Source: Eubacteriales bacterium
GTDB taxonomy: Bacteria > Bacillota > Clostridia > Oscillospirales > CAG-272
Reading direction: 5' to 3'
Assembly: GCA_041655935.1 (NCBI GenBank)
Contig: JBBAEK010000005.1
Coordinates: 3,034 to 67,033, forward strand
Length of the DNA stretch: 64,000 bases
Program-made: the position numbers and the translations under genes
The notes under the pieces: model-generated
The model's database searches: none
What the model saw: the letters and a program-made list of their open reading frames with translations, nothing else
Told to the model about the DNA's origin: nothing
In this document: positions 10,927-55,552 of the stretch, in pieces
How the letters are laid out: each line of letters starts with the position of its first letter
Position numbering within the stretch: the first letter of the stretch is position 1

Positions 10927-10955
10927 TTTACTTTTTCCGCTTTCTATGGTAGAAT
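10927..10955 (+). promoter_or_regulatory. possible promoter of V-ATPase operon (TTTACT-17-TG-n-TAGAAT)
   Basis: An extended -10, TGGTAGAAT, at 10947-10955, with -35 TTTACT at 10927-10932. Confidence 0.35.
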
Positions 10956-13458: not shown

Positions 13459-13483
13459 CTATTGATCAATAAGAAAGCGGGTA

Positions 13484-14565: not shown

Positions 14566-14576
14566 AGGAGGTTGGT

Positions 14577-15554: not shown

Positions 15555-15864
15555 TATCGGTGTCATCGGAGAGTATGACAGCATTTGCGGGTTTTCCGCG
15601 GTAGGATTCAGCATCTTTCCTGTCGAGTCGGCGGAACAGGCGCGAAAAACACTCAAAACCCTGGCAGATCAAGCGTACGGCATCATCTATATCACGGAAC
15701 CGTTCATGGAAGAGCTGAAAGAAGACTGCGCGCGGTACGATGAGCGGCCCACGCCCTGTATCATTCCCATTCCTGCGTTCACCGGGTTGACGGGCTTTGC
15801 GGAAGGCAGGCTCCGGCAGTGCGTGGAGCGGGCGGTCGGTTCCGATATCATATTTACTGATTGA
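15547..15864 (+). CDS. ntpF: V-type ATPase subunit F
   Basis: MYNIGVIGEYDSICGFSAVGF... is a typical subunit F N-terminus. The ATG at 15547 overlaps the stop of subunit C (ATGTATAA). Confidence 0.8.
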   Translation: MYNIGVIGEYDSICGFSAVGFSIFPVESAEQARKTLKTLADQAYGIIYITEPFMEELKEDCARYDERPTPCIIPIPAFTGLTGFAEGRLRQCVERAVGSDIIFTD

Positions 15865-15882
15865 GAAAGGTATCATCCTGAT

Positions 15883-17655: not shown

Positions 17656-17658
17656 GCG

Positions 17659-19740: not shown

Positions 19741-19747
19741 ATGTAAC

Positions 19748-21193: not shown

Positions 21194-21199
21194 TGGGAA

Positions 21200-39350: not shown

Positions 39351-40319
39351 TCAGTTGACGACGGGAAAGCGATAGACAATCTCGTCCCACAGTGCCGTGT
39401 GCAGATAGGCGCACCGTGTCTCCTCGTGCGCGGTCATGCCGATGGCGAGGCCACGGTTCGGCACCACCAGCGCGAACTGGTCAAACGCACCCGAGGCCTG
39501 GAACGCGCCCGGCTCGTTCTCACAGCACCAGAACTGGAACCCGTACCATGCCGGCGAGGTGCTGGGGGAGGCGATGTCAGCCGGCACGCCGCCCCGGGTG
39601 CCCTGGTACTGGTCGCCCCAGGAATTCACCTGCGGGGAGGTGGCAGCACGGACATAGGCCTCCGAAACCAGGCGCTTCCCCTCGTACACCCCGCCCTGCA
39701 GCAGCAGCTGGGCAAACCTTGACAGGTGCTCGGTCCGCAAAAAGAGACCGCTGCACCCGTGACTGATCCCTCGGGGGCAACTGAACCATTGCGGGAAGGG
39801 AATGCCCAGCGGCTCAAAGAGGCGGGGCATCAGGTAATCCCGCAGCGATTGCCCGGTCAGTTTGGTGATGAGCGCGGAGAGCAAATAGGTGGAGGCGTTG
39901 CTGTAAAAGAAACGTGTCCCCGGGTCGGTTGCCAGGGGTTGCGCGAGGATGTACGCCGCGTAGTCCCGGCAGTTCGGGTCCTCCAGCTGACCCAGCAGGT
40001 AGTGCTTGCCGAACCCGGCCGTCATGGTCAGCAGGTGCCGCACGGTCAGTTGCTCCAGCCGCCGGTCATACCCCGGCTGCAGCGCCTCGGCAAAGTAGGG
40101 CAACACGAGCTCGTCCACCGAGGAGAGCAGCCCCTCGTCGATGGCGATACCGATGCCGAGCGAGGTGAAACTTTTCGAGGCGGAGTACAGATTGACGGGG
40201 TTGTCGCGACGGGTATGATGTTCGGCGATCACCTGCCCGCCCTGCCGCACCACAATGCCGTATAGCCCCAGTCCCTGCGCTTTTACCTGCTCTAAAAAAT
40301 TCTGCAAAGAAAACTCCAT
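39351..40319 (-). CDS. serine hydrolase (beta-lactamase/transpeptidase-like fold), paralog A
   Basis: MEFSLQNFLEQVKAQGL...YSASKSFTS (SxxK motif). The ATG at 40319 has GGAGG 6 nt upstream. The 516-aa track ORF is an upstream GC artefact. Confidence 0.75.
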   Translation of the reverse strand: MEFSLQNFLEQVKAQGLGLYGIVVRQGGQVIAEHHTRRDNPVNLYSASKSFTSLGIGIAIDEGLLSSVDELVLPYFAEALQPGYDRRLEQLTVRHLLTMTAGFGKHYLLGQLEDPNCRDYAAYILAQPLATDPGTRFFYSNASTYLLSALITKLTGQSLRDYLMPRLFEPLGIPFPQWFSCPRGISHGCSGLFLRTEHLSRFAQLLLQGGVYEGKRLVSEAYVRAATSPQVNSWGDQYQGTRGGVPADIASPSTSPAWYGFQFWCCENEPGAFQASGAFDQFALVVPNRGLAIGMTAHEETRCAYLHTALWDEIVYRFPVVN

Positions 40320-40453
40320 ACCTTCCTCCTGTGACGCCCGAGGCCCCTCGGCCGTCTCTTTCATAGTGAATATGTGAGAGCAGCCGCCATGGCCGCCGCA
40401 CTCCCGTGTACAAACATCCGCCGGCGTGTCCGGCCGCCTGCCCCGCTGCCGCC

Positions 40454-41434
40454 TCAGCGCGCCTCCCCGGCGAGCGGGAAGCGCCGGACGACCTCCTCCC
40501 ACAGTGCCGCGGATAGCTGCGCCCCCTTTGTCTCCTCGTGGGCGGTCAGCCCGATGGCGAGGGCGCGGCCCGGCACCACCAGGGCAAATTGACTGTACAG
40601 CCCCGCCGCCTGGTAAGCACCCGGGTCCTCCCGACAGCACCAAAACTGGAATCCGTACCATACCGGCTCGACCTCGGCGGACGTTTGGGTAGCCGGCGCA
40701 CCCCCCCGGGTCCCCTGGTGCTGGTCGCCCCGAGAGTTGACCTGCGGCGACGTGGCGGCTTGCAGATACGCCGCCGACACAATCCGCCGGCCTCCGTACA
40801 CCCCGCCCTGCAACAGCATCTGCGCGAAACGGGACAAGTGCTCCGTATGTAAAAAGAGACCGCTGCCGCCGAAGCTGATGCCCTTGGGGCACAGCGACCA
40901 TTGGGGGTAGGGAATGTCCAGCGGCTCAAAGAGGCGGGGCATCAGGTAATCCCGCAGCGACTGCCCGCTGAGCTTGGTGAGGAGGGCGGAGAGCAGATAG
41001 GTGGAACTGCTGCTGTATAAAAAGCGCGTCCCCGGCTCGGACAGCAGGGGCTTTGACAGAATATAGGCCACATAGTCCCGGCAGTACGGCTCCTCAAACC
41101 TGTTCATCATTAAAAAACGGTGGTCTATCCCTCCGGTCATGGTGAGCAGGTGCCGCACGGTCAGTTGCTCCAGCCGCGGGTCATACCCCGGCTGCAGTGA
41201 CTCGGCAAAGTAGGGCAACACGAGCTCGTCCACCGAGGGCAGCAGCCCCTCGTCGATGGCGATCCCGATCCCGACGGAGGTAAAGCTTTTCGAGGCAGAA
41301 TACACATTGACCGGCACGTCGCGCCGGGTGTGATGGTTGGCTACCACCTGCCCGCCCTGCCGCACCACAATGCCGTACAGGCCAAGCCCTTGCGCTTTGA
41401 CGCGTTCCAAAAAGGGTTGCAAAGAAAACTCCAT
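40454..41434 (-). CDS. serine hydrolase (beta-lactamase/transpeptidase-like fold), paralog B
   Basis: MEFSLQPFLERVKAQGL...YSASKSFTS, collinear with paralog A over the full length. The ATG at 41434 has a GGAGG RBS. Confidence 0.75.
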   Translation of the reverse strand: MEFSLQPFLERVKAQGLGLYGIVVRQGGQVVANHHTRRDVPVNVYSASKSFTSVGIGIAIDEGLLPSVDELVLPYFAESLQPGYDPRLEQLTVRHLLTMTGGIDHRFLMMNRFEEPYCRDYVAYILSKPLLSEPGTRFLYSSSSTYLLSALLTKLSGQSLRDYLMPRLFEPLDIPYPQWSLCPKGISFGGSGLFLHTEHLSRFAQMLLQGGVYGGRRIVSAAYLQAATSPQVNSRGDQHQGTRGGAPATQTSAEVEPVWYGFQFWCCREDPGAYQAAGLYSQFALVVPGRALAIGLTAHEETKGAQLSAALWEEVVRRFPLAGEAR

Positions 41435-41713
41435 CACGCCTCCTTCGACGATCGGACAGCGTCCGGGTGTCTTTCCGATCATATGTCCCTCTGCCATGCA
41501 GATACCTGAATGCATTGTAGCACACCCCGCCCCCGAATGCAAGCGATTGACAAAAAGAGGCCGGGATGTTACAAAAACTTCACTTGACTTTTTCGGCAAA
41601 ATAGCATATAGTTGGTATATCTCTCCAAGAACTGCCTGTCACGGTCACGCGGCGCATTTTGCGTCTGCGTCAAAGATACCCACACCCGAATTTCCACCAA
41701 GGGAGGCATTGGC

Positions 41714-42613
41714 ATGATCACAGCCACCAACGTTACCATGAAGTTTGAGGACTTCGTGGCACTCAATCATTTGAACTGCACCATCCCAAACGGCTGCATT
41801 TACGGGCTGGTCGGCAGCAACGGCGCGGGCAAGTCCACCTTTTTACGCCTGATCAGCGGGGTCTACCGCCCCGCGGAGGGGGAGATTTTCATCGACGATC
41901 AGCCGGTGTATGAAAACCCGGCGGTGAAAGCGCAGTTGATGTTTATCCCGGACGAGCTCTTTTTTCTGCCCGGCTCGAACATGGACCAGATGGCGAGCTT
42001 TTACAGCCACCTGTACGACAGCTTCCGCTTTGACCGCTACCACAACCTGACCAAGACGTTCGGGCTCAACCCCCGCGCCCCCATCCATACTTTCTCCAAG
42101 GGTATGCGCCGCCAGGCCGCCACCATCCTCGGGCTGTCGGTGATGCCGCGCTTTTTGTTCTTTGACGAGACCTTCGACGGGCTGGATCCCGTGATGCGCA
42201 ACCTGGTCAAGGAGGTCATCAACCAGGATGTCGCCCAGCGCAATACCACCACCATCATCACCTCGCACTCCCTGCGTGAGCTGGAGGACACCTGCGGCCA
42301 GCTCGCCCTGCTGCACAAGGGTGGGATCGTGTTCGAGAGCGACATTCAGAATTTGACAACCAAACTGTTCAAAATACAAATCGCCCTGCCCTATGAGTTC
42401 AACCGATCCGTGTTCGCAGGGGTGGACCTTCTCAACTACTCCCAGCACGGGACGGTCGCCACCTTCATCGTGCGGGGGGACAGGGAGCAGACCTTAGGCT
42501 TTTTGCGCACGCTGAACCCGGTCCTGCTGGATGTGTTGCCGCTGGGGCTGGAGGAGGTTTTCGTGTTTGAGATGGAAGCGCTGGGGTATGCTTTCAAAGA
42601 AATTTTGATGTGA
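41714..42613 (+). CDS. ABC transporter ATP-binding protein
   Basis: Walker A GSNGAGKST, signature FSKGMRRQ, Walker B LFFDETFDGLD. GGGAGG RBS before the ATG at 41714. Confidence 0.85.
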   Translation: MITATNVTMKFEDFVALNHLNCTIPNGCIYGLVGSNGAGKSTFLRLISGVYRPAEGEIFIDDQPVYENPAVKAQLMFIPDELFFLPGSNMDQMASFYSHLYDSFRFDRYHNLTKTFGLNPRAPIHTFSKGMRRQAATILGLSVMPRFLFFDETFDGLDPVMRNLVKEVINQDVAQRNTTTIITSHSLRELEDTCGQLALLHKGGIVFESDIQNLTTKLFKIQIALPYEFNRSVFAGVDLLNYSQHGTVATFIVRGDREQTLGFLRTLNPVLLDVLPLGLEEVFVFEMEALGYAFKEILM

Positions 42614-42623
42614 GGTGAGAGGC

Positions 42624-44864
42624 ATGAAACATCTATTTCACTTTGGCTTATACCGAGAGGGGCTGAAGCGTCTGCGCACCGTGGGCCTCATCAGCGCCAT
42701 TTTGTGCCTGCTGGCCAACCTCATCGTGCCCCTGACCACCCTCATTCTGTACAGCCAAACCAAGAACCTCACCACGACGGAAGTACCGCCGGAGGTGTTG
42801 CCCATCGAAATACTGGGCATGTCCATGCCGCTTTTCATCCTGCTGGTGCCTTTCATCATTCTCTCCATCTTTAACTATCTCAACGACCGCGCCAAGTCCG
42901 ACTTTTACCACGCCATCCCCTACCGCCGCAGTTGTGTGTACAGCAGCTTTCTGCTGGCGGCGTTGAGCTGGATTTGGGGGATTGTCCTGCTCTCCCTCGG
43001 CACGGTGGGCGTGCTTTATGCCGTCAACCCCATGGTGGTTTTCAGCTTCGGCAACCTCTTGCTGGTCATGTTGGTCTACCTGATCGCCGGCACCATGATG
43101 GCGGGCTTCACCGCTTTGGCGATGACCCTGACCGGCACCGCCACCTCCAACTTTTTCGTCCTCATGTTGCTTCTGTTTGCCTTCCGGCTCAGCGCGGGGA
43201 TTTTCGTGAATACGCTGGCGGACGTGTTGCCCATCTTTGACATTGACTACTCCATCGGTGCCTTCTTGCAAGCCAAGTACTTTTTGCCGCTGGCACTGCT
43301 GATTTTGCCGCTGGCACTGCTGAGCAATGTCATTGGCACCCAGCCGGTGGACGTTTATACAAATGGCGGCATGTTGCTCTACTCCGCTCTGGTTTCGCTC
43401 TTGCTGCTCGGGCTGGGCGCATGGGTCTATATCAAGCGGCGCAGCGAGATGGCGGGCAAGAGCGCGCCAAACCGCGCCCTGCAGCATGTGTTCCGCTGCG
43501 CCTTTGCCCTCCCGCTGGTGTTCTTGGCGATGCAGCAGTTGTTTCGGTACTTCTATGTCAAAAGCACCTTTTTCTCCACTGCCTACCTCCCCGCTTTTGT
43601 GGCGCTGTTAGTTTTGTCAACCCTGGTGTACTTCTTCTACGAGCTGCTCACCACCCGCCGCTGGCGTCGCCTGCTTTCCGCGCTGAAAGTTTTTCCCATC
43701 CTGCTCGTCTGTGCCGGCATGTTTGCCGTGGGGGTGTATGCCACCAGGCAGCGTGTGCTGCAAAAGGAGCTTCAGGCCTCAGACATCAGTGCCGTGTCTC
43801 TCTATGAAAAGGGGTACTCTTACAGCAGCCCCGGCTATGGAGCCCTCAAGGCGGCGGGACTCTTTTTCAGCGACCCAGACCTTTTGGCGCTGGTCGCCCA
43901 GGTGTACGACGGATCGATTACGGCCCTGCTCGAAAACAAGTTCCTCCCCAACTGGCGCGGTGATTTTGATATGCTCCTGCCCGGCGGCGGGGGCGGCATC
44001 GGGCAGGAGGAGGCGTACTACCGCTATGTCGCCATCAAGCTCAAGTCCGGCCGCACCATCGGCCGCTACCTGAAGTTCACTGCAGAGCAGCAAACGGAGC
44101 TTGAGTCGCTCATGCAGGAGCAGGAGGAGTATTTGCAGGCCGCCCTGCTCATCCCCATTCCGGCAGAGGTGCTGAATGTCTGGGCGTATGCCGGCATCGG
44201 GGGGTATTACAGCAGTGATGATGCCGCTCGTTTTGCCGAGCTGTGGGCAGTGTTTTACAATGAGTACCAGACCCTGACCACCGAGCAGAAACAGGCTATG
44301 CGCCAGAACCCCAACGACCTCTTTACCTTCAATGTCAGCGGCGTGACGGGGACCAAGCCCTTTTCGGGCTACTACGGTGTCCCTGCCACTATGAAGCAAA
44401 CCATTGCCGCGTTCGCCCGCCTGCTCAATGAAAAAAAGGTCTATGGTCAGGCAGGGAACACGCCCAACCTCACATGGATGGAGGGGGTGCTCACCGCTTT
44501 TGCCGAGCAAAATCTCTCCTCCGCCTATAAGACCTATTGTCAGATTGGTTTTTACACGGAGGACGACTCGTTTTTCATCTCGCTGGAATATGAGCAGGAC
44601 GGTACTTTGAGTACAGAGAAAAAAGCCCTCTGGGCTGCCGTCGCGCAGATTTTGCTGGAGGAGATTGACCAACCCTTTGACGGGCAGAGCGCTTACGTGC
44701 TGATCGATGCCTCTTTCGTGACACTGGTTGAGGGAGAGGGCGACCGGGGCGCATCGTACGGAAGCTATGTCGGCGGCACGGTGTTGCTTCCCCTGTCGGC
44801 TGACAGCGTCACGCGCCTGCAACCCTATATCGAAGAGTTGCTGACCGGCGAAATTCCGTACTGA
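42624..44864 (+). CDS. ABC-2-type permease-like membrane protein fused to a ~380-aa non-membrane C-terminal domain
   Basis: The N-terminal ~370 aa has ~8 hydrophobic helices. The C-terminal half is soluble with no recognisable motif. It is coupled (1-10 nt gap) to the ATPase gene. Confidence 0.65.
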   Translation: MKHLFHFGLYREGLKRLRTVGLISAILCLLANLIVPLTTLILYSQTKNLTTTEVPPEVLPIEILGMSMPLFILLVPFIILSIFNYLNDRAKSDFYHAIPYRRSCVYSSFLLAALSWIWGIVLLSLGTVGVLYAVNPMVVFSFGNLLLVMLVYLIAGTMMAGFTALAMTLTGTATSNFFVLMLLLFAFRLSAGIFVNTLADVLPIFDIDYSIGAFLQAKYFLPLALLILPLALLSNVIGTQPVDVYTNGGMLLYSALVSLLLLGLGAWVYIKRRSEMAGKSAPNRALQHVFRCAFALPLVFLAMQQLFRYFYVKSTFFSTAYLPAFVALLVLSTLVYFFYELLTTRRWRRLLSALKVFPILLVCAGMFAVGVYATRQRVLQKELQASDISAVSLYEKGYSYSSPGYGALKAAGLFFSDPDLLALVAQVYDGSITALLENKFLPNWRGDFDMLLPGGGGGIGQEEAYYRYVAIKLKSGRTIGRYLKFTAEQQTELESLMQEQEEYLQAALLIPIPAEVLNVWAYAGIGGYYSSDDAARFAELWAVFYNEYQTLTTEQKQAMRQNPNDLFTFNVSGVTGTKPFSGYYGVPATMKQTIAAFARLLNEKKVYGQAGNTPNLTWMEGVLTAFAEQNLSSAYKTYCQIGFYTEDDSFFISLEYEQDGTLSTEKKALWAAVAQILLEEIDQPFDGQSAYVLIDASFVTLVEGEGDRGASYGSYVGGTVLLPLSADSVTRLQPYIEELLTGEIPY

Positions 44865-44935
44865 CCCCCGTCGAGCACCCTCGACCCGTCGAGCACCCTC
44901 GACCCGTCGAGCACCCCCGACCCGTCGGCATCCCC
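44863..44935. repeat. 18-bp tandem repeat, ~4 copies (GACCCGTCGAGCACCCTC)
   Basis: Units at 44863-82 (20 nt), 44883-900, 44901-18 and 44919-35 (degenerate). The repeat starts inside the stop codon of the permease gene. Confidence 0.9.
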
Positions 44936-45036: not shown

Positions 45037-45072
45037 GGCGGCACTTGTGGTAAAACAGGTGCCGCCTTTTCG
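45037..45072 (+). terminator. intrinsic terminator
   Basis: GGCGGCAC-n14-GTGCCGCC followed by TTTTCGTG. Confidence 0.6.
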
Positions 45073-45200: not shown

Positions 45201-45229
45201 TTGATTTTCCGAAAAGCACATGATATAAT
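45201..45229 (+). promoter_or_regulatory. sigma70-like promoter (TTGATT-17-TATAAT) in an AT-rich gap
   Basis: TTGATT at 45201-06, a 17-nt spacer, TATAAT at 45224-29. It lies ~75 nt upstream of the ATG at 45306. Confidence 0.5.
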
Positions 45230-45305: not shown

Positions 45306-46454
45306 ATGGCAAAAATGGTGCGACTCAGTTTTTTGGTTGACGGGAAAGTGTTCAGTACGACCATGCACAAGGAAGGTGAGGCAATTGTACCGATACAAGC
45401 GCCGGAAAAAACGGGACATCGTTTCATTGCCTGGAAGAACCTGCCCGATGTCATGCCGCGGCGCGATTTCCAGGTGGAAGCGGAGTATGAGGCCCTGTCT
45501 TACCGGCTCAGGTTTGTCACCGAGGAGGGCGTACACCAGGAGCAGGCGCTGCCCTTTGGCGCCCCCATTGTGCCGCCTGCGGATCCCGAAAAGCGGGACC
45601 ATACTTTCGACGGCTGGAGCAACCTGCCCGCCACCATGCCTGCCCGCAACATAGAGGTGCGGGGTACTTTCACGCCGCTCCCCTATGTCTTGCGTATGGT
45701 GGTGGATGAGCAGGAGTACGCCACGTATGAGTTCCCCGCCGGCGCCTCGCTCACCGAGCTGCCGCTGCCCGCCAAGATCGGGCACACCTTCAGCGGCTGG
45801 AACAAAAACTATAAGAAAATGCCCCGCTCCAACCTGACCCTCAAGGGCTCGTTCAAGGTCAACAAGTACGAGTTGCGCTTTGTCATTGAGGGCGAGATGG
45901 ACTTTGCCCGCAAGGTGGAGTACGGCGCTCCCATTCGTCCCCTCGGTGTGCCCATGCGGGAGAACCACACCTTTTCGGGCTGGGGGAGCATCCCGGCGAC
46001 CATGCCGGCGCACGACCTGGAGTTTGTCGGGAGATTCACCCTGAACGCCCACGAGCTGCGCTTCTTGCTGGAAGATGAGCTCATTTTCAGCGCGGTGGTG
46101 GATGTCGGCACCCCCATCAAGGCACCCGAGGTGCCGATGAAAACCGGGTATATGTTCAGCGGTTGGCGAGGGCTGCCGAAGGTCATGCCCGACCACCCCT
46201 ATGAGGCGGCAGGCAGGTACTATCTCCGCAAGTACAAGGTCAGGTACATATTGGACGGCGAGGAATACGAGGAACAGACCGTTGCCTACGGCGCACCGGT
46301 GGTGCCGGCGCAGGAGCCGGTCAAAGAGGGGTACGTGTTTGGCGGCTGGAAGAATCTCCCCCCTGTGATGCCTGCCGAGGATATCACGGTGACAGGCAGC
46401 TGGGGCGTACGCAACCAAGAGGTGAAAAAAGCAGGAGGGGCAATCAATGGCTGA
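45306..46454 (+). CDS. InlB B-repeat-like protein, 6 repeat units, no signal peptide
   Basis: GGGAGG RBS. Six units carry the core G-[HY]-x-F-x-G-W-x-x-[LI]-P-x-x-M-P. The N-terminus MAKMVRLSFLVDG has no hydrophobic leader. Confidence 0.8.
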   Translation: MAKMVRLSFLVDGKVFSTTMHKEGEAIVPIQAPEKTGHRFIAWKNLPDVMPRRDFQVEAEYEALSYRLRFVTEEGVHQEQALPFGAPIVPPADPEKRDHTFDGWSNLPATMPARNIEVRGTFTPLPYVLRMVVDEQEYATYEFPAGASLTELPLPAKIGHTFSGWNKNYKKMPRSNLTLKGSFKVNKYELRFVIEGEMDFARKVEYGAPIRPLGVPMRENHTFSGWGSIPATMPAHDLEFVGRFTLNAHELRFLLEDELIFSAVVDVGTPIKAPEVPMKTGYMFSGWRGLPKVMPDHPYEAAGRYYLRKYKVRYILDGEEYEEQTVAYGAPVVPAQEPVKEGYVFGGWKNLPPVMPAEDITVTGSWGVRNQEVKKAGGAING

Positions 46455-49400
46455 CCAAAAGACCAACCAACTGTATGAACTGGTATATAAAATTGACGGT
46501 AAAATATCGTATGTCGAGAAGGTAGAGAAGGGCACCCGCCTGACCTCTCTGGCCAAGCCGACAAAGGACTTCCATACTTTTTCGGGCTGGGAGAGCATCC
46601 CCTCCCGGATGCCCGCGCGTGATGTGGTGCTGGAAGGGAAGTTCACCCCCAACCGCTACACGCTGGTTTTCATGGTCGGGGAGGAGGAGATCAGCCGGCA
46701 GGAGCTGACCTACGGCGCTCCCATCGAGTGCCCCCCCGCTCCCGAAAAGGTGGGCTACACTTTTTCGGGCTGGTCTGATGTTCCCGAGACCATGCCGGGG
46801 CAGGACCTGACCGTCATCGGGCACCGGCAGCCGAATCTCTACCGGATCCATTACGTCATCACCGACCGCACCGCCGGCGACGTCACCACCACCTTTTCCG
46901 TGCCGTGCGCCTATGGCGAGCCGATCGAGCTGATGGACGAACCTGTCAAGAAGTACTGCACCTTCAGCGGCTGGAGCGGAGTGCCCGCCACCATGCCCGC
47001 GCGCGATTTGACCGTGACGGGGACCCTGTCGCTGACCCTCTATACCCTGACCCGCATTGTGGACGGGGAAGTGTTCAAGGTGGAGCACCTTCCCTATGGG
47101 GCGCCTGTGGCCAAAAAGCCCAACCCCACGAAGGAGGGCTACTATTTCAGCGGCTTCCGCAGCCTGCCGAAGACGATGCCCGACCACGACGTCGAGGTGG
47201 TCTCCAGCATGTACCCCGCCCGTTACAAGGCGGACTTTCTCATTGACGGACAGCCTTACAAGACCGTCTACATTCCTTTTGGTTCTCCCGTGGAAGTGAC
47301 GCTCGACCCCCATGAGGGGCGTGTGTTCACCGGCTGGACCGACTGCCCCGACCTCATGCCCGCGCATGATATTGAGGTCCACGGTCACTGGCAGTTCCAT
47401 GTCCACCGCCTGAGCTATCGGGTGATGGGCGAGGTCGTCAAGACGCTGGACGTACCGTACGGCACGCCCCTTGACGAGCCGGGCCCGGCGGTGAAGGGAT
47501 ACCTGTTTTTAGGCTGGAAGGACGCGCCTGCCACCATGCCCGACCACGACTTGGTACTGGATGGGCTTTACCGCATCAAGGCAGAGAAGGTCGCGTATCT
47601 CATTGACGGCGAGGAGTACGCCATGTATGACAGCCGGGAGCTTGGCGACCGGCTCGACGCGCCCGCCCCGCAGGAGCGGGAGGGCTTTGTGTTCAGCGGA
47701 TGGGAAGAGGTGCCCCCCGCGGACGACGGCGATGTGTATGAAATCCGCGGCAGCTATATCCCACAGACTTACGAAGTCACCTTCCTGGCGGATGACGAGG
47801 TGGTAGAGGTGGTCGCGGTGCCTTACGGCGAGCGGATCCTCGCCCCCACGCCCCCCGCCAAGGAAAACCACACCTTTGTGGGCTGGTCCGACCTGCCCGC
47901 CGCCATGCCCGCCAAAAACATCACCGTGACGGCCTCGTACACCGAGAGCGTGTACCGTATCGCCTTCGTGATCGGGGACGAGATCATCACCGAGTATGTC
48001 CGCCCCTTTGGCACCCCGGTGGCGTGTCCGATTCCTCCGGAAAAGCAGGGACATTCCTTCTCCGGCTGGATGAACTGCCCCGACAGTATGCCCAACCACG
48101 AGCTGACCGTATACGGTACATACACCCCCAATGAGTATAAAATTGTTTACATTTTGAACGGCGATCCCTATCGGACCGACACGCTGACATACGGGGCTGA
48201 AGTCACCCCCCCGCAACCCGTGGCAGAGGAGGGGTATCGCTTCACCGGTTGGGAAGCCCTCCCCGAAACCATGCCCGACGGTGACATCGAAGTGTCGGGG
48301 AGCCTGATCCCCGAGCAGTTCCGCCTGACCTTTGTCCTTGACGGGGAACCCTTCAGCGAGCTGACCCAGCCGTTCGGCAGCGAGATTGCGCCGCCCACAG
48401 TGCCCGACAAGGAGGGATATCGCTTTGTGGGCTGGCAGGACTGCCCGGCCACCATGCCCGCGGACGACCTGACCGTACAGGGTAGCTATGCCCTGCAGGA
48501 GTACACCCTGTCCTGGGTGGCAGGCGGCGAGACGCTGGCCAGCTACCCCGTGCCCTACGGCACCCCCCTCACTCTCCCCGACGGACTGTCGATCCCGCGC
48601 CCCGAGCAGTTTGAGGGCTGGGGCGAGTTCCCCACCACCATGCCGAATGCCGACCTGACCATTGAGGCACAGTATCGGAGCGAGTTTTGCCTGCGCTTCG
48701 TCGTGGACGGGACGGTCCTGTTTGAGGCCCTGCAAACGGCGGGCACCCCCATTGTCGAGTGCTGCGAGGTTCCGCCGAGGGAGGGGTACCACTTCACCGG
48801 CTGGTCCGGCCTGCCCGAGGGGGCGGCAGAGGATGCCCCCCTCCTGATGCCCGACCACGATTTGACCCTCACCGGCAGCTATGAGCTCAACCTCCGCACG
48901 GTGAGCTACCGTGTGGACGGCGAGGTGTTCGCCGTGACCGAGTTGCTCTACGGCGCCCCGCTCTCCCTGAGAGGGGCTCCCGCCAAGGACGGCTACCGCT
49001 TCATCGGTTGGACCGGCCTGCCCGAGGAGCTCTCAGTCGAGCTGGCAGAGGGTGGCTCCGTCTCCATGCCGGATGAAGACTTGGTCGCAGAAGCGGCCTT
49101 TGTGCGCGTGTATCCCGTCCGCTTTTACATCGAAGACCAGTTGCTGGCGGAACAGCTCTTGGCGGAGGGAGAGACCATTGAGGTCCCGTCCATCCCCGCC
49201 AAAGAGGGCTATACCACCGCGGGCTTTGACGAAGTGCCGCCCGTGATGCCGGGAGAACCGCTGCAATTGACCGCCACCTACCGGCCCGCCGTCTACACCG
49301 CCACCTTCATGGCGGACGGCAAAGTCGTGGAGGCGCGGAGCTTTAGTTACGACACGCCCCTGCTGGCACCCGCGCCACCTGCGGTGGACGGCTGCAAGTT

Positions 49401-52400
49401 TGTGGCGTGGCAGAACCTGCCGCAAACCATGCCTGCCCATGATGTGCTCATTGAGGCTGCCTATGCCGAGGACCACTCGGTGCCCGTCACCTTTATGGTG
49501 GACGGCGAGGTGCTGTCGGTGGCAAAGTTAGAGCGTGGCGATGCCATCGTCTGCCCGCCCGTCTCCGAAAAAGAGGGACACACCTTTGGCGGTTGGGAGC
49601 AGGTCCCCGCCCGGGTCGGCAGAGAGCCGCTGGTGTTGCAGGGGCATTATGTCCCCCATGTGCACACCATTACCTATGTAGTCGATGACAAGACTTACAG
49701 CGTGCAGGAGTTGCCGTTCGGCCACCCGCCCCGCTCAGTCAAGGAGCCGGTCAAGGAAAAGCACCGCTTCACCGGCTGGCAGGGCTTGCCCGAGCGTATG
49801 CCCGACGAGGATCTCACCGTCACCGCCGCTTTCCGGCCGCTGCACACCCTGCGCTTTTTGTCGGGCAGCGAGACGGTTTGCGAGCTGGTGCTGGAGACCG
49901 GGCAGGCCTTCCAGGCACCGCCCCCGCCCTTCCGTTACGGCCACACGTTTGTGGCGTGGGATAACCTGCCCGAGCAGGTGGACGGAGACGCGGTTGTCCA
50001 TGCGCGCTTTTTGCCCAACACAAACATCATCAGCTTTTTGGTGGACGGCATTGCCGTTGACCAGCACAAGTATCGTTACGGCGAGGCCATCACCCCGCCG
50101 GCGGCCCCCGTCAAACCGGGCTTCACTTTCGCCGGCTGGCTGGACTTGCCGCCGCTCATGCCGGACGAGGACCTGACGGCCAGAGCTTCTTTTGATAAAT
50201 ATCACACGCCGGTACAATTTTTCGTGGACGACGAGTTGTACCAGTCCTATTCCGTTCCCTACGGCGCCCCCCTGACACTGCCCGAGTCGCCCACCAAGGA
50301 AGGGCACACCTTCAGCGGCTGGGGCGAGGTGCCGGCGACAGCGCCCGATCATCCGCTGGACCTTTACGGCACCCTGACCCCCAACCTGCACCGCCTGACC
50401 TTTGTGTATGAGGGGCAGGAGCTGTCCGCGCAGGAGCTGCCGTACGGCGCCCCCATTGTGCCCCCCGCCCTGCCAACCCCCCGGGAAAGGACCAAGGGCA
50501 GTTGGGGCGAGGTCCCCGCACTCATGCCCGACCGCGACCTGTGCATCGAGGCCGTCATCACCGAGAACCGGCACCCCGTGCGCTTCTATGCGGACGATGA
50601 GCTGGTATCCGAGGTGTCCCTGTACGAGGGCGAGCCCATCACGCTGCCCCAGGTGACAGTGCCGGAGGGCCACCGCCTCAGCGGCTGGGAGACCGTGCCC
50701 GCCCTCATGGGCGGCGAGCCGCTCGAGTTCCGGGCGCAGACCGTGCCTGACACCTATCGGGTCACTTTCAAAGCGCAGGATCGTGTGCTGGAAAGCCGCA
50801 CCTATCCCTACGGCGCTCCCATTGTCGCCCCCGAGCCGCCCGCGCTGAAAAAGCACTATTTTGACGGGTGGCGGGACCTGCCGCAGACCATGCCCGCCGA
50901 GGACATTGTCACCGAGGCAGTCTATGTCTCCAAGACCCTGTCGAAAGTCACCTTCCAGATCGGCGAGGAGATCGTATCCGAGCTGTTTTTGGAGCGCGGG
51001 GACCGCATTGTCTTCCCCACCCCCGCCGAGAAGGAGGGCTATACCTTCGCTGGCTGGGAGAAGGTGCCCGCCAGGATGGGGCGCGAGCCGCTACTCATCC
51101 GCGGGATGTACCGCGTCAATGTACACCAGGTTCATTTCATGTGGGGCGAGACTGTCTATGCCCGGCAGGAGGTAGCCTACGGCCAACCCATCCAGCTGCC
51201 CCCGGCACCCGAGCCGGAGGGGCAGGTATTTCGCGGTTGGCTGGGACTGCCCGAGCAGATGCCCGATGAGGATGTGACGGTTTCCGCCGACATCATCTCC
51301 ATTTACCGCCTGACCTTCCGGGTGGACGAGGAAGTGGTGGAGGAGCGGCACCTCTTGGCAGGCGAGCCCATCACCCCGCCCGCCGCACCCGTCAAGTACG
51401 GTCATACCTTCGGCGGTTGGGCAGGCCTGCCCGAGACGGCGGAGAACAACGCGGTCTACCAGGCTGTCTACACTCCCAACCAGCACACCGTGGTGTTTTT
51501 GCTGAATGGGCTGGAGCTCACCACCCGCAAGTTCGCCTATGGCGACCTCATCACGACCCCCGACGCACCGAAAAAGGAGCAGCATATCTTCACCGGCTGG
51601 TCAGGTCTGCCTGAGTTCATGCCCGATGAGGATTTGGTTGTCCGCGCCCTCTTTGAGCATCGTGCGATGCCCATTCGGTTTTATGTGGACAACGAGCTGC
51701 TGGCAGAGCAGATCCTCTTTGCCGGGGATCCCATCACCATCCCCGAGCTATCGCTCAAGGAAGGGCACGACTGGTCGGGCTGGCAGGATGTGCCCGCGAC
51801 CGTGGGCGAGCAGCCGCTCACCTTCCACTCCTCCTTCACCCCCCGCACCCATAAGGTCAGCTTCTATGTCAGAAACAAGCTGTACTATGAGCAGCGGCTG
51901 AACTTCGGCGAGGCCATCACCCTGCCGACCCCGCCCACCTTGAAAAAGCACTCCTTTGACTGCTGGAAAGACCTGCCGGAGCTCATGCCCGACCGGGACA
52001 TCAAGCTGTATGCCCAACTGGGCCCGGTCCGCCACAATCTCCGCTTCCTCATTGACGGGGCTGTCGTCTTTGAGCAGCAACTGCCCAAGGGCACGCCCAT
52101 CACCCCGCCGGAGCTCGAGGAAAAGTTCGGGTATTACTTCAGCGGCTGGGGCAAGGTTCCCGCGCGTATGCCCCGGGAGGATGTGGTCTTAGAAGGGCGG
52201 ATGATCCCCAAGACCCGCAAGCTCACTTTCCTCTGTGAGGATAAGGTGTTCCATGAACAGGTCGTACAGGTCGGCCAGCCCATTCCGCTACCCAAAAACC
52301 CGAAGATCAAAAATATGCAGTTCTTGGGCTGGATGGAGAGTCCCGAGGCCATGCCCGACGAGGACTTGGTGCTCAAGGCCCAGTTCATCTCCAGCTTCAA

Positions 52401-54918
52401 CACCGTGAAGTTCATGATCGGCGAGCTCAAGGTCGCCGAGAAGAAGTTGGCGATGGGCGAGCGCATCTCCTTCCCGCCACCCCCCAAACAGACGGGCTAC
52501 ACCTTTGCCGGCTGGGATAACGCCCCCATTCGCATGGGGGACCAGGACCTGGTCGTGACCGGAAAATTCGTGGCGAACATTTACAAGGTCGTCTTTGTGG
52601 TGGGCGGCAAGACCGTCCACACGCAGAACGTGACCTTCGGAGAGCAGATTCCGCTCCCCGAGCCCCCCGCCAAGGAGAACTACACCTTCCTTGGCTGGCA
52701 GAACCTGCCGCAGACCATGCCGGCCCACGATGTGCGCCTGACGGCACTCTTTGAGCCGCTCTTCCAGGTCAGCTTTGTCATTGACCACGAGGTGGTCTCG
52801 GAGAAGATGCTCAAGCAGGGCGACAAGATCGAGGCGCCCACCGTCACCGAGAAGCCCGGTTATGACTTCTCCGGCTGGAGCAAGTTCCCCCAGAAGGTCA
52901 AAAACAGCTCTCTGAAAATCGAGGGCAAGTACCTGCCCCATGTACACAAGGTCACGTATTTGGTACATGATAAGTCCTTTGCCACCAAGAAGATCGCCTA
53001 TGACGACCCGGTGCCCGTGATCGACCCGCCGTCCGTGGAGGCGCATACCTTCCTTGGCTGGGATGGGATGGTGGAGCGGATGCCCGACGCCGACCTGACC
53101 GTTGTCGCGAAGTATGCCCCCATTTCCTACAAAGCGACCTTTATGTTAGGGTCCTCGGTAGTCTCGGAGGAGATGGTTCCCTTTGGCGCGCCCATCCCCT
53201 GCCCGGAGGTACCGGAAAAGGTCGGCTACACCTTCAGCGGCTGGCAGGATGTCCCCGAGAAGATGACGGGCAAGCCCCTGCTCATCAACGGGGAGTATGT
53301 CCCTAACCGTCACACCGTTACCTTCCGCGCCGGCGGCAAGGACTATAAGCAGCAGGTGGTGCTTTTCGGTGCCCCGGTGAAGGCGCCCGAGGAAGCCCCC
53401 GCACTGAAAAATCATGTATTCCTTGGCTGGGCGAATCTGCCCGCCACCATGCCCGACCAGGACATCACCATTGAGGCCAACTACCGCGCGGTGGCATTCA
53501 AGGCAACCTTCCTGCTCGACGGCTCGCCGGTCACCGAGGTGGATGTGCCCTATGGCAACAAGATCCCCTGTCCCGAAGTGCCGGAGCGGGTGGGCCATAC
53601 CTTTGGCGGTTGGGAGAACCTGCCCGAGACCATGGGCGCGTCGTCGATCTTAATCAACGGAACCTATACGCCGAAGCTCCATACCGTGGCCTTCCAGACC
53701 AAGAAGGGCAAGACTTTCGCGGAAATGACCGTGTCTTACGGCGAGGCCATTCCCACCCCGTCCGATGTGCCCTCTCTCCGCAAGCACCTGTTCAAGGAGT
53801 GGCACGGCATCCCCGCCACCATGCCCGACCAGGACCTGGTCATCCCGGCAGTGTTCGAGCCGATCAGCCGCGCGAAGCACCCGGTCACTTTCCTGGTCAA
53901 CGGGAAAGCGTACGGCAAGCCGGTCAAGGTCAAGTACGGCAAGAGCATCCCCCTCCCGCCTCCCCCCTCCAAGGATGGGTATCGCTTCATCCGTTGGGAC
54001 GCGCTGCCCGAGACCATGCCGGGGCACCCGGTGACGCTCAACGCCGTCTTTGAGGCGGCAGTGTATCGCGTGCAGTTCATGCTCGACGGTCAGCTGTACC
54101 AGGAGGCGACCTTGCCGCAGGGAGCGCCCGTGCCCCAGCCCGTTCCGCCGGAAAAGGAGGGCTACATTTTCAGTGGCTGGCAGAATTACATGGCGGTCAT
54201 GCCTGAGCACGACTTTGTGGTCAGCGGCAACTTTAAGGACAAGGCCTACACGGTCCGGTACATGGTGAACGGCAAACTGTTCAAGGAACAGGGCTATGTC
54301 CGGGGCGAGTATATCACGCCCGAGCAGGCACCTGCGGGACTGCATAGTGACTTTGTGCAGTGGCAGGGACTGCCCGCCGTCATGCCCGCGCGCGACCTTA
54401 CCGTTCATGCTTCGTATGAGAAAAAGCGCTTCACCGTCACCTACATGCTGGACAACGCGGTGATCAAAATAGCCGAGTTGCCGCACAGCACGCCCATCAC
54501 CCCACCGGTGGTGCCCGCCCGCGGCAAAAAGCATCTGGTTCGCTGGAACGGGATGCCGCCGGACGGCCTGGTGCCCAAGTACGACATCGTGCTGGACGGC
54601 GAGTGGGGCACTGTCGAGGAGAAGCTTGCAGCCCTCAAGGCCGAGATGAAAATGCGGAAGAAAACCGCCAGGGTAGAGCGCCGGCTTGCCCGCAAGGAAG
54701 GCCGGAACCAACCGACCGAACAGTCGGGCGCGGATGACACGGTGGCATTTTCGTCGTCCCCCACGGAAGAACCGAAAAAGAAGCTTGCCCGCAAGCAAAA
54801 GCAGAAAGCGAAAAAGCAAGCCAGACTCACCCGTCGGGAAAAGATGCAGCGCCAAAAGGAAGTCGAAAAAGCCGCCAAAAACGAACTGCAAAGCATGATG
54901 TACAAGTTGATGAGATAA
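46447..54918 (+). CDS. giant (2823 aa) InlB B-repeat-like protein, ~44 units, Lys/Arg-rich C-terminal tail, no signal peptide or anchor
   Basis: GGAGG lies 8 nt upstream. The start overlaps the upstream stop (ATGGCTGA). The open frame is uninterrupted. Periodic ~62-aa units run throughout. Confidence 0.85.
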   Translation: MADQKTNQLYELVYKIDGKISYVEKVEKGTRLTSLAKPTKDFHTFSGWESIPSRMPARDVVLEGKFTPNRYTLVFMVGEEEISRQELTYGAPIECPPAPEKVGYTFSGWSDVPETMPGQDLTVIGHRQPNLYRIHYVITDRTAGDVTTTFSVPCAYGEPIELMDEPVKKYCTFSGWSGVPATMPARDLTVTGTLSLTLYTLTRIVDGEVFKVEHLPYGAPVAKKPNPTKEGYYFSGFRSLPKTMPDHDVEVVSSMYPARYKADFLIDGQPYKTVYIPFGSPVEVTLDPHEGRVFTGWTDCPDLMPAHDIEVHGHWQFHVHRLSYRVMGEVVKTLDVPYGTPLDEPGPAVKGYLFLGWKDAPATMPDHDLVLDGLYRIKAEKVAYLIDGEEYAMYDSRELGDRLDAPAPQEREGFVFSGWEEVPPADDGDVYEIRGSYIPQTYEVTFLADDEVVEVVAVPYGERILAPTPPAKENHTFVGWSDLPAAMPAKNITVTASYTESVYRIAFVIGDEIITEYVRPFGTPVACPIPPEKQGHSFSGWMNCPDSMPNHELTVYGTYTPNEYKIVYILNGDPYRTDTLTYGAEVTPPQPVAEEGYRFTGWEALPETMPDGDIEVSGSLIPEQFRLTFVLDGEPFSELTQPFGSEIAPPTVPDKEGYRFVGWQDCPATMPADDLTVQGSYALQEYTLSWVAGGETLASYPVPYGTPLTLPDGLSIPRPEQFEGWGEFPTTMPNADLTIEAQYRSEFCLRFVVDGTVLFEALQTAGTPIVECCEVPPREGYHFTGWSGLPEGAAEDAPLLMPDHDLTLTGSYELNLRTVSYRVDGEVFAVTELLYGAPLSLRGAPAKDGYRFIGWTGLPEELSVELAEGGSVSMPDEDLVAEAAFVRVYPVRFYIEDQLLAEQLLAEGETIEVPSIPAKEGYTTAGFDEVPPVMPGEPLQLTATYRPAVYTATFMADGKVVEARSFSYDTPLLAPAPPAVDGCKFVAWQNLPQTMPAHDVLIEAAYAEDHSVPVTFMVDGEVLSVAKLERGDAIVCPPVSEKEGHTFGGWEQVPARVGREPLVLQGHYVPHVHTITYVVDDKTYSVQELPFGHPPRSVKEPVKEKHRFTGWQGLPERMPDEDLTVTAAFRPLHTLRFLSGSETVCELVLETGQAFQAPPPPFRYGHTFVAWDNLPEQVDGDAVVHARFLPNTNIISFLVDGIAVDQHKYRYGEAITPPAAPVKPGFTFAGWLDLPPLMPDEDLTARASFDKYHTPVQFFVDDELYQSYSVPYGAPLTLPESPTKEGHTFSGWGEVPATAPDHPLDLYGTLTPNLHRLTFVYEGQELSAQELPYGAPIVPPALPTPRERTKGSWGEVPALMPDRDLCIEAVITENRHPVRFYADDELVSEVSLYEGEPITLPQVTVPEGHRLSGWETVPALMGGEPLEFRAQTVPDTYRVTFKAQDRVLESRTYPYGAPIVAPEPPALKKHYFDGWRDLPQTMPAEDIVTEAVYVSKTLSKVTFQIGEEIVSELFLERGDRIVFPTPAEKEGYTFAGWEKVPARMGREPLLIRGMYRVNVHQVHFMWGETVYARQEVAYGQPIQLPPAPEPEGQVFRGWLGLPEQMPDEDVTVSADIISIYRLTFRVDEEVVEERHLLAGEPITPPAAPVKYGHTFGGWAGLPETAENNAVYQAVYTPNQHTVVFLLNGLELTTRKFAYGDLITTPDAPKKEQHIFTGWSGLPEFMPDEDLVVRALFEHRAMPIRFYVDNELLAEQILFAGDPITIPELSLKEGHDWSGWQDVPATVGEQPLTFHSSFTPRTHKVSFYVRNKLYYEQRLNFGEAITLPTPPTLKKHSFDCWKDLPELMPDRDIKLYAQLGPVRHNLRFLIDGAVVFEQQLPKGTPITPPELEEKFGYYFSGWGKVPARMPREDVVLEGRMIPKTRKLTFLCEDKVFHEQVVQVGQPIPLPKNPKIKNMQFLGWMESPEAMPDEDLVLKAQFISSFNTVKFMIGELKVAEKKLAMGERISFPPPPKQTGYTFAGWDNAPIRMGDQDLVVTGKFVANIYKVVFVVGGKTVHTQNVTFGEQIPLPEPPAKENYTFLGWQNLPQTMPAHDVRLTALFEPLFQVSFVIDHEVVSEKMLKQGDKIEAPTVTEKPGYDFSGWSKFPQKVKNSSLKIEGKYLPHVHKVTYLVHDKSFATKKIAYDDPVPVIDPPSVEAHTFLGWDGMVERMPDADLTVVAKYAPISYKATFMLGSSVVSEEMVPFGAPIPCPEVPEKVGYTFSGWQDVPEKMTGKPLLINGEYVPNRHTVTFRAGGKDYKQQVVLFGAPVKAPEEAPALKNHVFLGWANLPATMPDQDITIEANYRAVAFKATFLLDGSPVTEVDVPYGNKIPCPEVPERVGHTFGGWENLPETMGASSILINGTYTPKLHTVAFQTKKGKTFAEMTVSYGEAIPTPSDVPSLRKHLFKEWHGIPATMPDQDLVIPAVFEPISRAKHPVTFLVNGKAYGKPVKVKYGKSIPLPPPPSKDGYRFIRWDALPETMPGHPVTLNAVFEAAVYRVQFMLDGQLYQEATLPQGAPVPQPVPPEKEGYIFSGWQNYMAVMPEHDFVVSGNFKDKAYTVRYMVNGKLFKEQGYVRGEYITPEQAPAGLHSDFVQWQGLPAVMPARDLTVHASYEKKRFTVTYMLDNAVIKIAELPHSTPITPPVVPARGKKHLVRWNGMPPDGLVPKYDIVLDGEWGTVEEKLAALKAEMKMRKKTARVERRLARKEGRNQPTEQSGADDTVAFSSSPTEEPKKKLARKQKQKAKKQARLTRREKMQRQKEVEKAAKNELQSMMYKLMR

Positions 54919-54980
54919 CCCTTCGCACCCCTCGGCGCCCGTGCGCCGAGGGGCCCACCATCGGAAAGGAGTGAGCAAGT

Positions 54981-55487
54981 ATGAATCACCCACCGCATGA
55001 CGCACAGGGCGGCAGACGGCGAGCCATCGTCCAGGTAGGCGGTGGACTTCGCATTTTCGGCATCTCTTACAACGGACTGGCATTCACCCTCTTTTTTGTG
55101 GTGTGGGTCATCAGCAGACAGATCCACCCCACCTGGGCCATTTTGCTCTCCGTGCCGCTGGTCAATCTTTTTGCCCGCGCCATTGCCGACCGACGCTTTG
55201 AGTTTGTGGTGTTGCTTTGCGGCGCCGCTCTGCTCTTTCTCCTGCTCGGGTCGGTGTGGGGACTTTGGCACCCCGGCTGGCTGGTCTTTTGCGCCGTGCC
55301 TGTGGTCCAGTCGGCGCTGACCGCGTACCGCTCGCACGACTGCCGCGAGTTCTCCTTTGCCGGACTGGTAGCGATCCTTTACCTGTTCATCGGCTTTACC
55401 GTTGGGGGCTGGCATCCCTATTGGTTGCTCTTTTTGCTGATTCCCCTGTATGAGCAGTGGGCGCGGTGGTTCACTAACCAGGCATAG
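54981..55487 (+). CDS. small polytopic membrane protein (4-5 TM), unknown function
   Basis: 168 aa with hydrophobic helices (LAFTLFFVVWVI, WAILLSVPLVNLF, FVVLLCGAALLFLLLGSVWGL, WLVFCAVPVV, LVAILYLFIGFTVGGW, YWLLFLLIPL). It lies 62 nt after the giant gene. Confidence 0.6.
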   Translation: MNHPPHDAQGGRRRAIVQVGGGLRIFGISYNGLAFTLFFVVWVISRQIHPTWAILLSVPLVNLFARAIADRRFEFVVLLCGAALLFLLLGSVWGLWHPGWLVFCAVPVVQSALTAYRSHDCREFSFAGLVAILYLFIGFTVGGWHPYWLLFLLIPLYEQWARWFTNQA

Positions 55488-55511
55488 GGCGCCGCGGTGT
55501 TCGCCCGAAAA

Positions 55512-55552
55512 GCGGACGGTTCAAAGCAACCACTTTGACCGTCCGCTTTTTT
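55512..55552. terminator. bidirectional intrinsic terminator between convergent genes
   Basis: GCGGACGGTTCAAAG-n9-CTTTGACCGTCCGC, flanked by AAAA 5' and TTTTTT 3'. Confidence 0.75.

Follow-up and report, generated by a model that had tools for sequence, protein, structure and literature searches.

A 64-kb window of DNA from an Eubacteriales bacterium of the CAG-272 lineage (GCA_041655935.1, contig JBBAEK010000005.1; a metagenome-type assembly) contains two overlapping genes whose products consist almost entirely of B-repeats. The first gene (45306-46454, + strand) encodes a leaderless small protein of 382 amino acids (aa) with 6 repeat units, and the second (46447-54918, + strand) encodes a giant of 2823 aa and 315.6 kDa with 44 units. 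The pair recurs in related uncultured Clostridia as an autonomous, conserved operon, and in most of these relatives the giant ends in a PilM-like actin-fold domain. Tentatively, we infer that the giant lies on the cytoplasmic side as an end-tethered rod, in which a conserved head binds the co-translated 6-unit partner, a middle of variable length follows, and the far end docks.

An earlier note on this DNA, made without database searches, had described both open reading frames (ORFs), the first with 6 units and the second with 44 by hand count. A profile hidden Markov model (HMM), derived from the giant's own units and iterated, gives exactly the same numbers: 6 units at residues 4-366 of the small protein, and 44 units at residues 9-2720 of the giant, tiled wall to wall. 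In both proteins a unit measures about 58 aa plus a linker of 3-5 aa, and each scores an E-value between 1e-16 and 1e-28. The note's assignment of the units to the B-repeat (Flg_new) family also holds. The small protein matches PF09479 (Flg_new) with an E-value of 2e-33 (115 bits) and TIGR02543 with 44 bits, and the giant matches the same families with an E-value of 2e-194 (630 bits) and with 83 bits, respectively (cut-offs of 27 bits for PF09479 and 21 bits for TIGR02543). We also ran the fold check that the note had proposed. From an alignment of 11 orthologues, AlphaFold2 (AF2) predicts the small protein as six four-stranded units (predicted local distance difference test, pLDDT, 88), and the structural evidence for the fold comes from this 6-unit protein. 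A Foldseek search against the PDB matches the model to the InlB B-repeat structure 2y5p (template modelling score 0.73-0.76, root-mean-square deviation 1.9-2.6 A, 28-30% identity), with further matches to tandem ubiquitin-like arrays, SHIRT and YwfG. On profile matches and predicted structure, the units of both proteins are Flg_new/InlB B-repeat (beta-grasp) domains. A mismatch with B-repeat folds, which the note had named as grounds for refutation, did not arise. The note had further singled out the M-P-x-x-D ending of the units as a peculiarity; the same ending also fills Bacteroidales giants that carry signal peptides and T9SS-type (type IX secretion system) C-terminal domains, and we dropped it as a diagnostic novelty for that reason.

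The giant divides into four regions. Its head comprises units 1-10 (residues 9-619; 46471-48303, + strand), delimited by a unit-by-unit table of best matches, in which these units pair one-to-one with those of two close orthologues, barring one cross-match at unit 2. Units 1, 4 and 5 pair one-to-one even with distant orthologues bearing the PilM-like domain, and in close orthologues the equivalent of unit 4 has kept 86-89% identity. The second region is a variable rod of units 11-41 (residues 624-2535; 48316-54051, + strand), recognised from the unit table and from identity by offset: the order of its units is not kept between orthologues, and the middle units are shuffled. Identity between units is higher at even than at odd offsets, and between residues ~888 and 2410 the unit endings alternate between MPDEDL and V/M-G-x-x-P-L, forming a two-unit super-repeat. 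Because the unit subtypes alternate in this way, the rod has probably expanded in evolution by a two-domain module. The third region, the last three units (42-44, residues 2539-2720; 54061-54606, + strand in the unit table), is again recognisable between species, with units 42 and 44 orthologous to the matching last units of close relatives.

The fourth region, overlooked in the earlier note, is a hydrophilic, non-repeat basic tail of 103 aa (residues 2721-2823; 54607-54915, + strand), which we defined by its composition and by comparison of C-termini. It contains 31 lysines and arginines against 14 aspartates and glutamates (net charge +17, isoelectric point 10.5); the body of the giant has an isoelectric point of 5.0. 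The tail ends in ...ELQSMMYKLMR, a terminus conserved as ..RRRMGKLMK and ..RKRMRRLMR in those orthologues that also end in a tail, and it sits where most orthologues hold the PilM-like domain.

Neither protein carries a recognisable signal for export or anchoring, as the note had claimed. We screened for leaders and transmembrane (TM) segments with 19-residue Kyte-Doolittle windows, for LPXTG, Tat, lipobox and prepilin motifs by regular expression, and for SLH, CWB and GW modules with Pfam. No TM-like window occurs in the small protein (maximum 1.21, the in-frame upstream extension to 45072 included) or in the giant (maximum 1.63, in a lysine-containing junction between beta-strands). Likewise, we found in both proteins no LPXTG motif with a sorting tail, no Tat motif, lipobox, prepilin or T7SS-like (type VII secretion system) motif, no SLH, CWB or GW module and no T9SS C-terminal domain. 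An upstream start that would give the small protein a leader was considered and dropped, as the residues gained back to 45072 form no hydrophobic stretch and the promoter lies within that extension. The orthologues inspected (11 small proteins and 16 complete giants) also lack export and anchor signals, and their N-termini are equally polar. The window itself offers an internal control: a second Flg_new protein (6627-8321, + strand; 564 aa), composed of Laminin_G_3, Big_9 and one classical unit ending in ...IYAKW, has a clear Sec signal peptide (MNLAKTKKLMTVFLAITLLFSYISLFSMSVNA). Since this protein has a signal peptide, the organism does send its conventional Flg_new members through Sec.

The amino acid composition of the giants is weakly supportive of a cytoplasmic protein. 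Seven leaderless giants contain 0.64-1.22% cysteine, 13-15% serine, threonine and asparagine, and about 23% charged residues; the corresponding ranges are 0.22-1.81%, 12.5-16% and 24-26% in the window's cytoplasmic V-ATPase, TrkA and DinB proteins, and 0-0.35%, 16-31% and 12-26% in signal-bearing homologues. Two signal-bearing giants from Firmicutes/Tenericutes contain 0.00% cysteine.

To place the pair among its relatives, we scanned one genome per GTDB species for orthologues of the small protein and found them in 16 species-level metagenome-assembled genomes (MAGs), each of an uncultured member of the Clostridia or "Eubacteriales" living in rumen, caecum or human gut. The window and the metagenome contigs L003, L005 and L085 bring the total to the 20 loci examined here, with flanks surveyed up to 10 kb on each side of the pair. 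A giant B-repeat gene follows the small gene in 20/20 loci, at a spacing that in the orthologues is either a gap of 0-20 nt or an overlap. No other neighbouring gene is universal across the 20 loci, and because of this, together with the invariable adjacency of the two genes, we regard the pair as an autonomous, conserved operon.

Complete giants of this operon have 19-44 units and 1484-2823 aa. Small-protein orthologues have 5-6 units and 305-386 aa, share 46-53% identity and all begin with M[AE]K..L.F.VDG. Some of their motifs are fixed by position, such as GWNKNYKKMPxSNLT in unit 3 and EGYMFSGWRGLPKxMPD...YYLRKYK in unit 5, and mean column identity across the orthologues is 64%, compared with 31% between units. 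This strong position-specific conservation suggests that the small protein binds or caps the conserved head of the giant.

A non-repeat domain of 316-346 aa, itself trailed by a basic tail, comes after the final unit in 13 of the 16 complete giants (12/15 species-level loci). Pfam and PDB sequence profiles failed to recognise this domain, and a word-indexed protein search gave one match; we identified it through structure prediction with Foldseek and through an exhaustive profile search. An AF2 model based on an alignment of the orthologues' domains (alignment A3; predicted template modelling score, pTM, 0.77) has PilM as all ten of its top matches in the PDB (E-values 1e-10 to 8e-8, template modelling scores 0.41-0.54), followed by FtsA, BT_3980, the cytoplasmic domain of GspL and EutJ. 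The exhaustive profile search recovered 380 relatives which, besides the giants, include proteins of 475-520 aa and of ~300 aa. The longer standalone relatives examined consist of the PilM-like domain (residues 1-255), a strong TM segment around residues 320-340 and an ectodomain, and one of the ~300-aa relatives passes the cut-off for Pfam PilM_2. Both of the two relatives whose surroundings we examined lie inside type IV pilus clusters with a pilin, a prepilin peptidase (PilD) and PilC; the complete one of these two loci also holds a PilO/M-like gene, PilB and PilT. Given this layout of TM segment and ectodomain and this genomic context, the PilM-like domain is predicted to lie on the cytoplasmic face of the membrane in its known relatives. 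The giants that carry it have no hydrophobic or TM segment anywhere, and they are therefore most simply placed wholly on the cytoplasmic side. No pilus genes occur within the surveyed flanks of any of the pair loci. In an unrelated Firmicutes contig (L083, from 10844-13446 onwards), a type IV pilus cluster ends in a giant gene with a product of 2529 aa, which starts with a prepilin N_methyl motif, runs over the end of the locus and looks like a giant pilin-like protein.

The window belongs to a sub-clade whose giants end in the tail only. Besides the window, this group comprises L003 together with P0123, its near-identical cluster relative, then P0122 (locus L085) and probably L007. The tails are basic, 66-103 aa long and conserved at the extreme C-terminus. 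Comparison of the C-termini indicates that the PilM-like domain has been replaced by the basic tail in this sub-clade. No separate PilM-like gene was found in the window or in the L001, L003, L004 or L007 loci.

The two genes are arranged as a transcription unit of their own. A terminator-like hairpin, GGCGGCAC...GTGCCGCC followed by TTTT (45038-45069, + strand; read in the sequence, with a predicted terminator-like site at 45047-45065), is positioned to end the upstream operon of ATP-binding cassette (ABC) transporter genes and so to set the 5' boundary of the repeat-protein unit. Downstream of it, a scan and an alignment identify a predicted sigma-A-type promoter (45201-45229, + strand) consisting of TTGATT, a 17-nt spacer and the extended -10 box TGaTATAAT. 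It scores 10/12, is the only + strand match within 11 kb and ends 76 nt ahead of the small gene, whose ATG at 45306 is preceded by GGGAGGA. The same architecture is found in 16/19 orthologous loci scanned (start-codon refinement failed in the remaining 3 of 19). Among loci the -35 box is TTGATT or TTGCAA, with a 17-nt spacer and TGnTATAAT, and the TTG of the -35 and the whole of TGnTATAAT are invariant in the alignment. Compared with the consensus sequences, this conserved promoter has no resemblance to sigma-E or sigma-K promoters.

The leader between promoter and small gene matches no riboswitch or other known RNA in Rfam at E-values up to 0.1 (window's leader only). Most orthologous leaders contain a short GC-rich palindrome ~25-55 nt past the -10 box (alignment A4), for example GCGCGTGTGC.. 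and GTGCGCACGT..GGGTGCGC, with L005, L007, L008, L012 and L014 among the carriers; the window's leader has no obvious equivalent.

At the junction of the two genes (46434-46454, + strand), translational coupling is evident, as the note had claimed. The giant's ribosome-binding site, GGAGG (46434-46438), lies inside the small gene and ends 8 nt upstream of the giant's ATG, which overlaps the small gene's TGA in the 8-nt sequence ATGGCTGA (46447-46454). Behind the giant, a GC-rich 11-bp hairpin without a T-run (54929-54953, + strand) was read in the sequence and may act as an attenuator or mRNA stabiliser. It is followed by a gene for a 168-aa protein (54981-55487, + strand), which is probably co-transcribed with the pair, and by a strong hairpin (55508-55552), also read in the sequence, which forms a bidirectional terminator shared with a convergent PGA_cap gene and marks the 3' end of the unit.

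These observations can be assembled into a model. The sigma-A-type promoter would drive a self-contained operon for two leaderless poly-B-repeat proteins that stay on the cytoplasmic side, and the coupled 6-unit protein would be made in fixed proportion with the giant. The giant would be a rod resembling a string of beads, with a conserved N-terminal head, a middle that has drifted between 19 and 44 units from species to species, and a C-terminus that docks. The PilM-like actin-fold domain would do the docking in most relatives. In type IV pilus machines, PilM modules are found at the cytoplasmic face and clamp short peptides belonging to membrane partners. The window's sub-clade would have in its place the ~100-aa basic tail with its conserved terminal ..M-x-[KR]-L-M-[KR] peptide, and this might dock the rod in trans, the target being either an anionic surface, of membrane or nucleic acid, or a partner of the PilM/FtsA type. 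A long charged linker ending in a conserved peptide may be likened to FtsZ, which docks onto FtsA, although this is an analogy of design. An intracellular scaffold had been the third option of the earlier note, and the new evidence favours it over the other two.

Generalising from this model, it is possible, though we would put it forward with reserve, that B-repeat arrays also build giant intracellular rods in gut Clostridia. Such rods would have 19-44 units, plausibly measure more than 100 nm, carry a 6-unit partner on their head and be tethered at their C-terminus to a type IV pilus-like platform through the PilM-like domain (or, in the window's sub-clade, through a basic linker and docking peptide). 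They would represent a new kind of cytoplasmic tether, ruler or cytoskeletal accessory.

Several points weigh against placing the rod in the cytoplasm. All other Flg_new proteins with a characterisation or annotation lie outside the cell, which tilts the prior towards the surface. Every other Flg_new protein that we recovered carries either a signal peptide and a T9SS domain or LPXTG, and in the literature the domain features as a module of adhesins or stalks. Fibrillar adhesins, too, are classically designed as a stalk of variable length bearing a conserved tip, and the conserved tip, variable stalk and conserved base of the giant would suit this plan. The window's own giant has no PilM-like domain and none is encoded in the 64 kb, meaning that the argument from this domain reaches the locus only via orthology. 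The DxG-type aspartate with which actin-fold ATPases bind nucleotide, expected at the end of strand 1, is not among the invariant columns of A3, with the strands taken from the AF2 model. Finally, the argument from composition has few controls and is weak, being partly confounded by GC content; the window's secreted Flg_new protein, with 1.42% cysteine, 24.8% serine, threonine and asparagine and 15% charged residues, weakens its cysteine component.

The alternative that draws most on these points takes the pair for a surface fibril or adhesin that leaves the cell by some non-classical means, be it a holin-like pore, lysis or vesicles, a type IV pilus-associated pathway (for relatives bearing the PilM-like domain) or, in the tail-only clade, the neighbouring ABC system. 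The rod would then project its head and bound partner outwards, and the basic tail would bind anionic wall polymers, conceivably teichoic acids. We consider this, the main alternative, rather unlikely, if still worth serious attention. Among its candidate exporters are the neighbours that the earlier note had also proposed as export routes. Directly upstream of the pair lie genes for an ABC ATPase (DrrA/PmtA-like, ABC-2 type) and a 749-aa multi-TM permease (41612-44864, + strand; family scans and hydropathy). The permease has 11-12 hydrophobic segments and no match in Pfam, NCBIfam or the PDB. The gene order QueG-like gene, ABC ATPase, permease (~700 aa) and pair is kept in 4/4 tail-only loci (the window, L003, L007 and L085); in L003 and L085 a DUF6472 gene stands behind the QueG-like one. 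However, the ABC genes are absent from all 12 loci with the PilM-like domain. They also form a separate transcription unit, with their own terminator ahead of the pair's own promoter, and are of the ABC-2/DrrA type, not of the HlyB type of exporter. The linkage in the tail-only loci may be inherited synteny or a real link; judging from the loci compared, it cannot be general to the pair's family.

The second candidate is the 168-aa protein behind the giant, a small membrane protein in which the WHPxW motif recurs and hydropathy shows four hydrophobic segments. A homologue occurs near the pair only in L003 (E-value 1e-12), giving 2/20 loci when the window is counted, and the protein has no Pfam or PHROG family and no holin match. 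The co-occurrence check suggested in the note thus shows that neither the ABC genes nor the membrane protein follow the pair across the 20 loci, and we dropped both as obligate export partners. More generally, no exporter co-occurs with the pair across the clade, and the proteins have no T7SS-like, Tat or prepilin motif. Type IV pilus-assisted secretion has been described in Clostridium perfringens, but the cargo proteins there carry Sec signals. For most orthologues, moreover, fusion to a PilM-type domain without a TM segment would make an external location topologically awkward.

The note's second option, that the mother cell makes both proteins and deposits them on the forespore as coat or exosporium components, would explain the absence of a signal peptide, and coat and exosporium proteins are indeed leaderless. 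The host also belongs to the Clostridia, and the giant, repetitive and acidic but for its basic tail, might serve as material for a surface layer or an appendage. Even so, we regard it as improbable. The conserved promoter is a near-consensus sigma-A extended -10 promoter in 16/19 loci, unlike the sigma-E or sigma-K consensus, and PilM-like fusions are without precedent in coat proteins. No sporulation gene is linked to the pair in any of the 20 loci, and SpoIVA, which the note had invoked, was not found in the window by Pfam and NCBIfam scans of the large ORFs.

As for whether the genes are real, the units average 31% amino acid identity (maximum 57%), and the best direct repeats in the DNA reach no more than 85% identity and 79 nt in length, recurring at multiples of 183 nt. 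Tandem Repeats Finder (TRF) finds no tandem repeat in the DNA of the gene pair, and an identical pair is present in two further public records, GCA_964405355.1 (NCBI MAG) and ERZ27247346 (ENA), possibly derived from one assembly. Because the units are only ~31% identical and TRF is negative, an assembly artefact or collapsed repeat, which the note had named as a risk, is ruled out, and the recurrence of the sequence in other public contig records led us likewise to drop it. The wider suggestion that the ORFs are non-functional (an artefact, the relic of a surface-protein gene without its 5' end, or an over-called ORF in GC-rich repeats) draws on the metagenome-type assembly and the tendency of giant repeat genes to mis-assemble, but is effectively refuted by an 8.5-kb open frame in 60% GC DNA, by units diverged at the DNA level, by gene order, start context, ribosome-binding sites, promoter and N-termini kept in related loci at ~50% protein identity, and by the position-specific conservation among orthologues.

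The surroundings of the pair were examined for other signs of its origin. PHROGs and PADLOC returned nothing meaningful, and a phage or defence-system origin was dropped: the match to the ABC ATPase reflects generic P-loop similarity, and a WH_III-A match came without an individual stretch. The window also encodes V-type ATPase subunits I, A and B (11488-19032, + strand), TrkA/TrkH (19703-22651) and an Amt-PII fusion (24171-25916). This is an ordinary chromosomal context, which argues against a location of the repeat operon on a mobile element.

Further features of the neighbourhood stand on their own. Right after the stop codon of the ABC permease (44866-44925, + strand) there are three tandem copies of a ~19-nt motif (CGAGCACCCTCGACCCGT...), followed by a C-rich stretch and then the terminator hairpin. 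Upstream of the ABC genes lie two adjacent paralogues of the beta-lactamase fold (39351-40901 and 40454-41599, both - strand). The latter has a sub-threshold NCBIfam match to "3-succinylated cholic acid synthase" (E-value 1e-42; 146 bits against a cut-off of 800) and may be a bile-acid or ester-modifying enzyme. On the other side of the pair, L003 (19410-20603) and L085 (16318-17514) encode a conserved protein of ~397 aa without a Pfam family directly 3' of the giant; the window has no such gene, and the gene for the 168-aa membrane protein is found there instead. Among the other Flg_new proteins, P0134, P0139 and P0161 represent a different giant family (~2050-2300 aa) without a hydrophobic N-terminal leader. 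They begin with MENANNKKTYSISYEWNNGYDN... and have a segment rich in cysteine, glycine and asparagine as well as a distinct C-terminal domain. As these too have no leader, leaderless B-repeat giants may have arisen more than once.

Annotation of gut metagenomes routinely labels Flg_new or B-repeat proteins surface adhesins and counts them among host-interaction factors; the clade described here shows that such labels can mislead. If the giant is indeed cytoplasmic, it would be a new structural element, perhaps an accessory of the poorly understood type IV filament machines of monoderms. If it is exported instead, Clostridia would have an unrecognised secretion route for cargo of 150-315 kDa. 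The range of 19 to 44 units and the two alternative C-terminal ends provide a handle for comparative work. Giant Flg_new proteins of gut Clostridia have been remarked on before, on the assumption that they bind to surfaces. We found no description of leaderless B-repeat giants or of B-repeat-PilM fusions in the literature searched, and the conserved leaderless pair, the architecture of head, rod and end, the PilM-like fusion and the C-terminal swap in the window's sub-clade are apparently undescribed there.

Compared with known secretion systems, the pair has partial counterparts. ABC-dependent (type I-like) secretion relies on a HlyB-type exporter linked to its substrate and on a C-terminal secretion signal; no such exporter accompanies the pair, whose neighbouring genes encode a DrrA/PmtA-like ATPase and a separate permease without a family. 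The large clostridial toxins TcdA and TcdB are released through the holin-like TcdE. They are likewise leaderless, ~300 kDa, found in Clostridia and encoded near a gene for a small multi-TM protein (168 aa here). Unlike these toxins, the giant has no enzymatic or translocation domain, and the membrane protein is not of a holin family and is found at 2/20 loci only. The giant resembles fibrillar adhesins in its repeat stalk of a small beta domain, 19-44 units long among orthologues, between conserved ends; the term Flg_new appears once in the paper 10.1101/2021.12.07.471604. These adhesins are defined, however, by export and surface anchoring, and we looked for both features in the pair and found neither.

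The closest relatives of the repeats themselves are the Flg_new surface arrays, which include the Listeria internalins, the T9SS giants of Bacteroidales and the ~4000-aa "doubled motif LPXTG anchor" proteins of Hungatella. These have in common with the pair the domain, the fold, the head-to-tail period of ~61 aa and similar sizes, and the Bacteroidales giants even share the GW..P..MPxxD variant of the unit. The surface arrays have an N-terminal signal peptide and C-terminal sorting (by T9SS, or by LPXTG and a hydrophobic tail), neither of which is found in the window's clade. In that clade, by contrast, a coupled gene for a 5-6-unit partner always precedes the giant, a PilM-like end is usual and the composition is more cytoplasm-like.

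The closest relatives of that end are PilM, the cytoplasmic domain of GspL, and FtsA, which serve as actin-fold platforms in type IV filament machines and the divisome. The orthologues' domain differs from them in being C-terminal and fused to 19-35 B-repeats, in being followed by a basic tail and not by a TM segment, in not lying beside pilus genes and in showing no phosphate-binding aspartate among the invariant columns of its alignment, and the window's giant has no such domain at all. What connects the clade to these proteins is the fold itself, present in 13/16 complete orthologous giants, and a kinship at the sequence level to the PilM-like proteins of pilus clusters.

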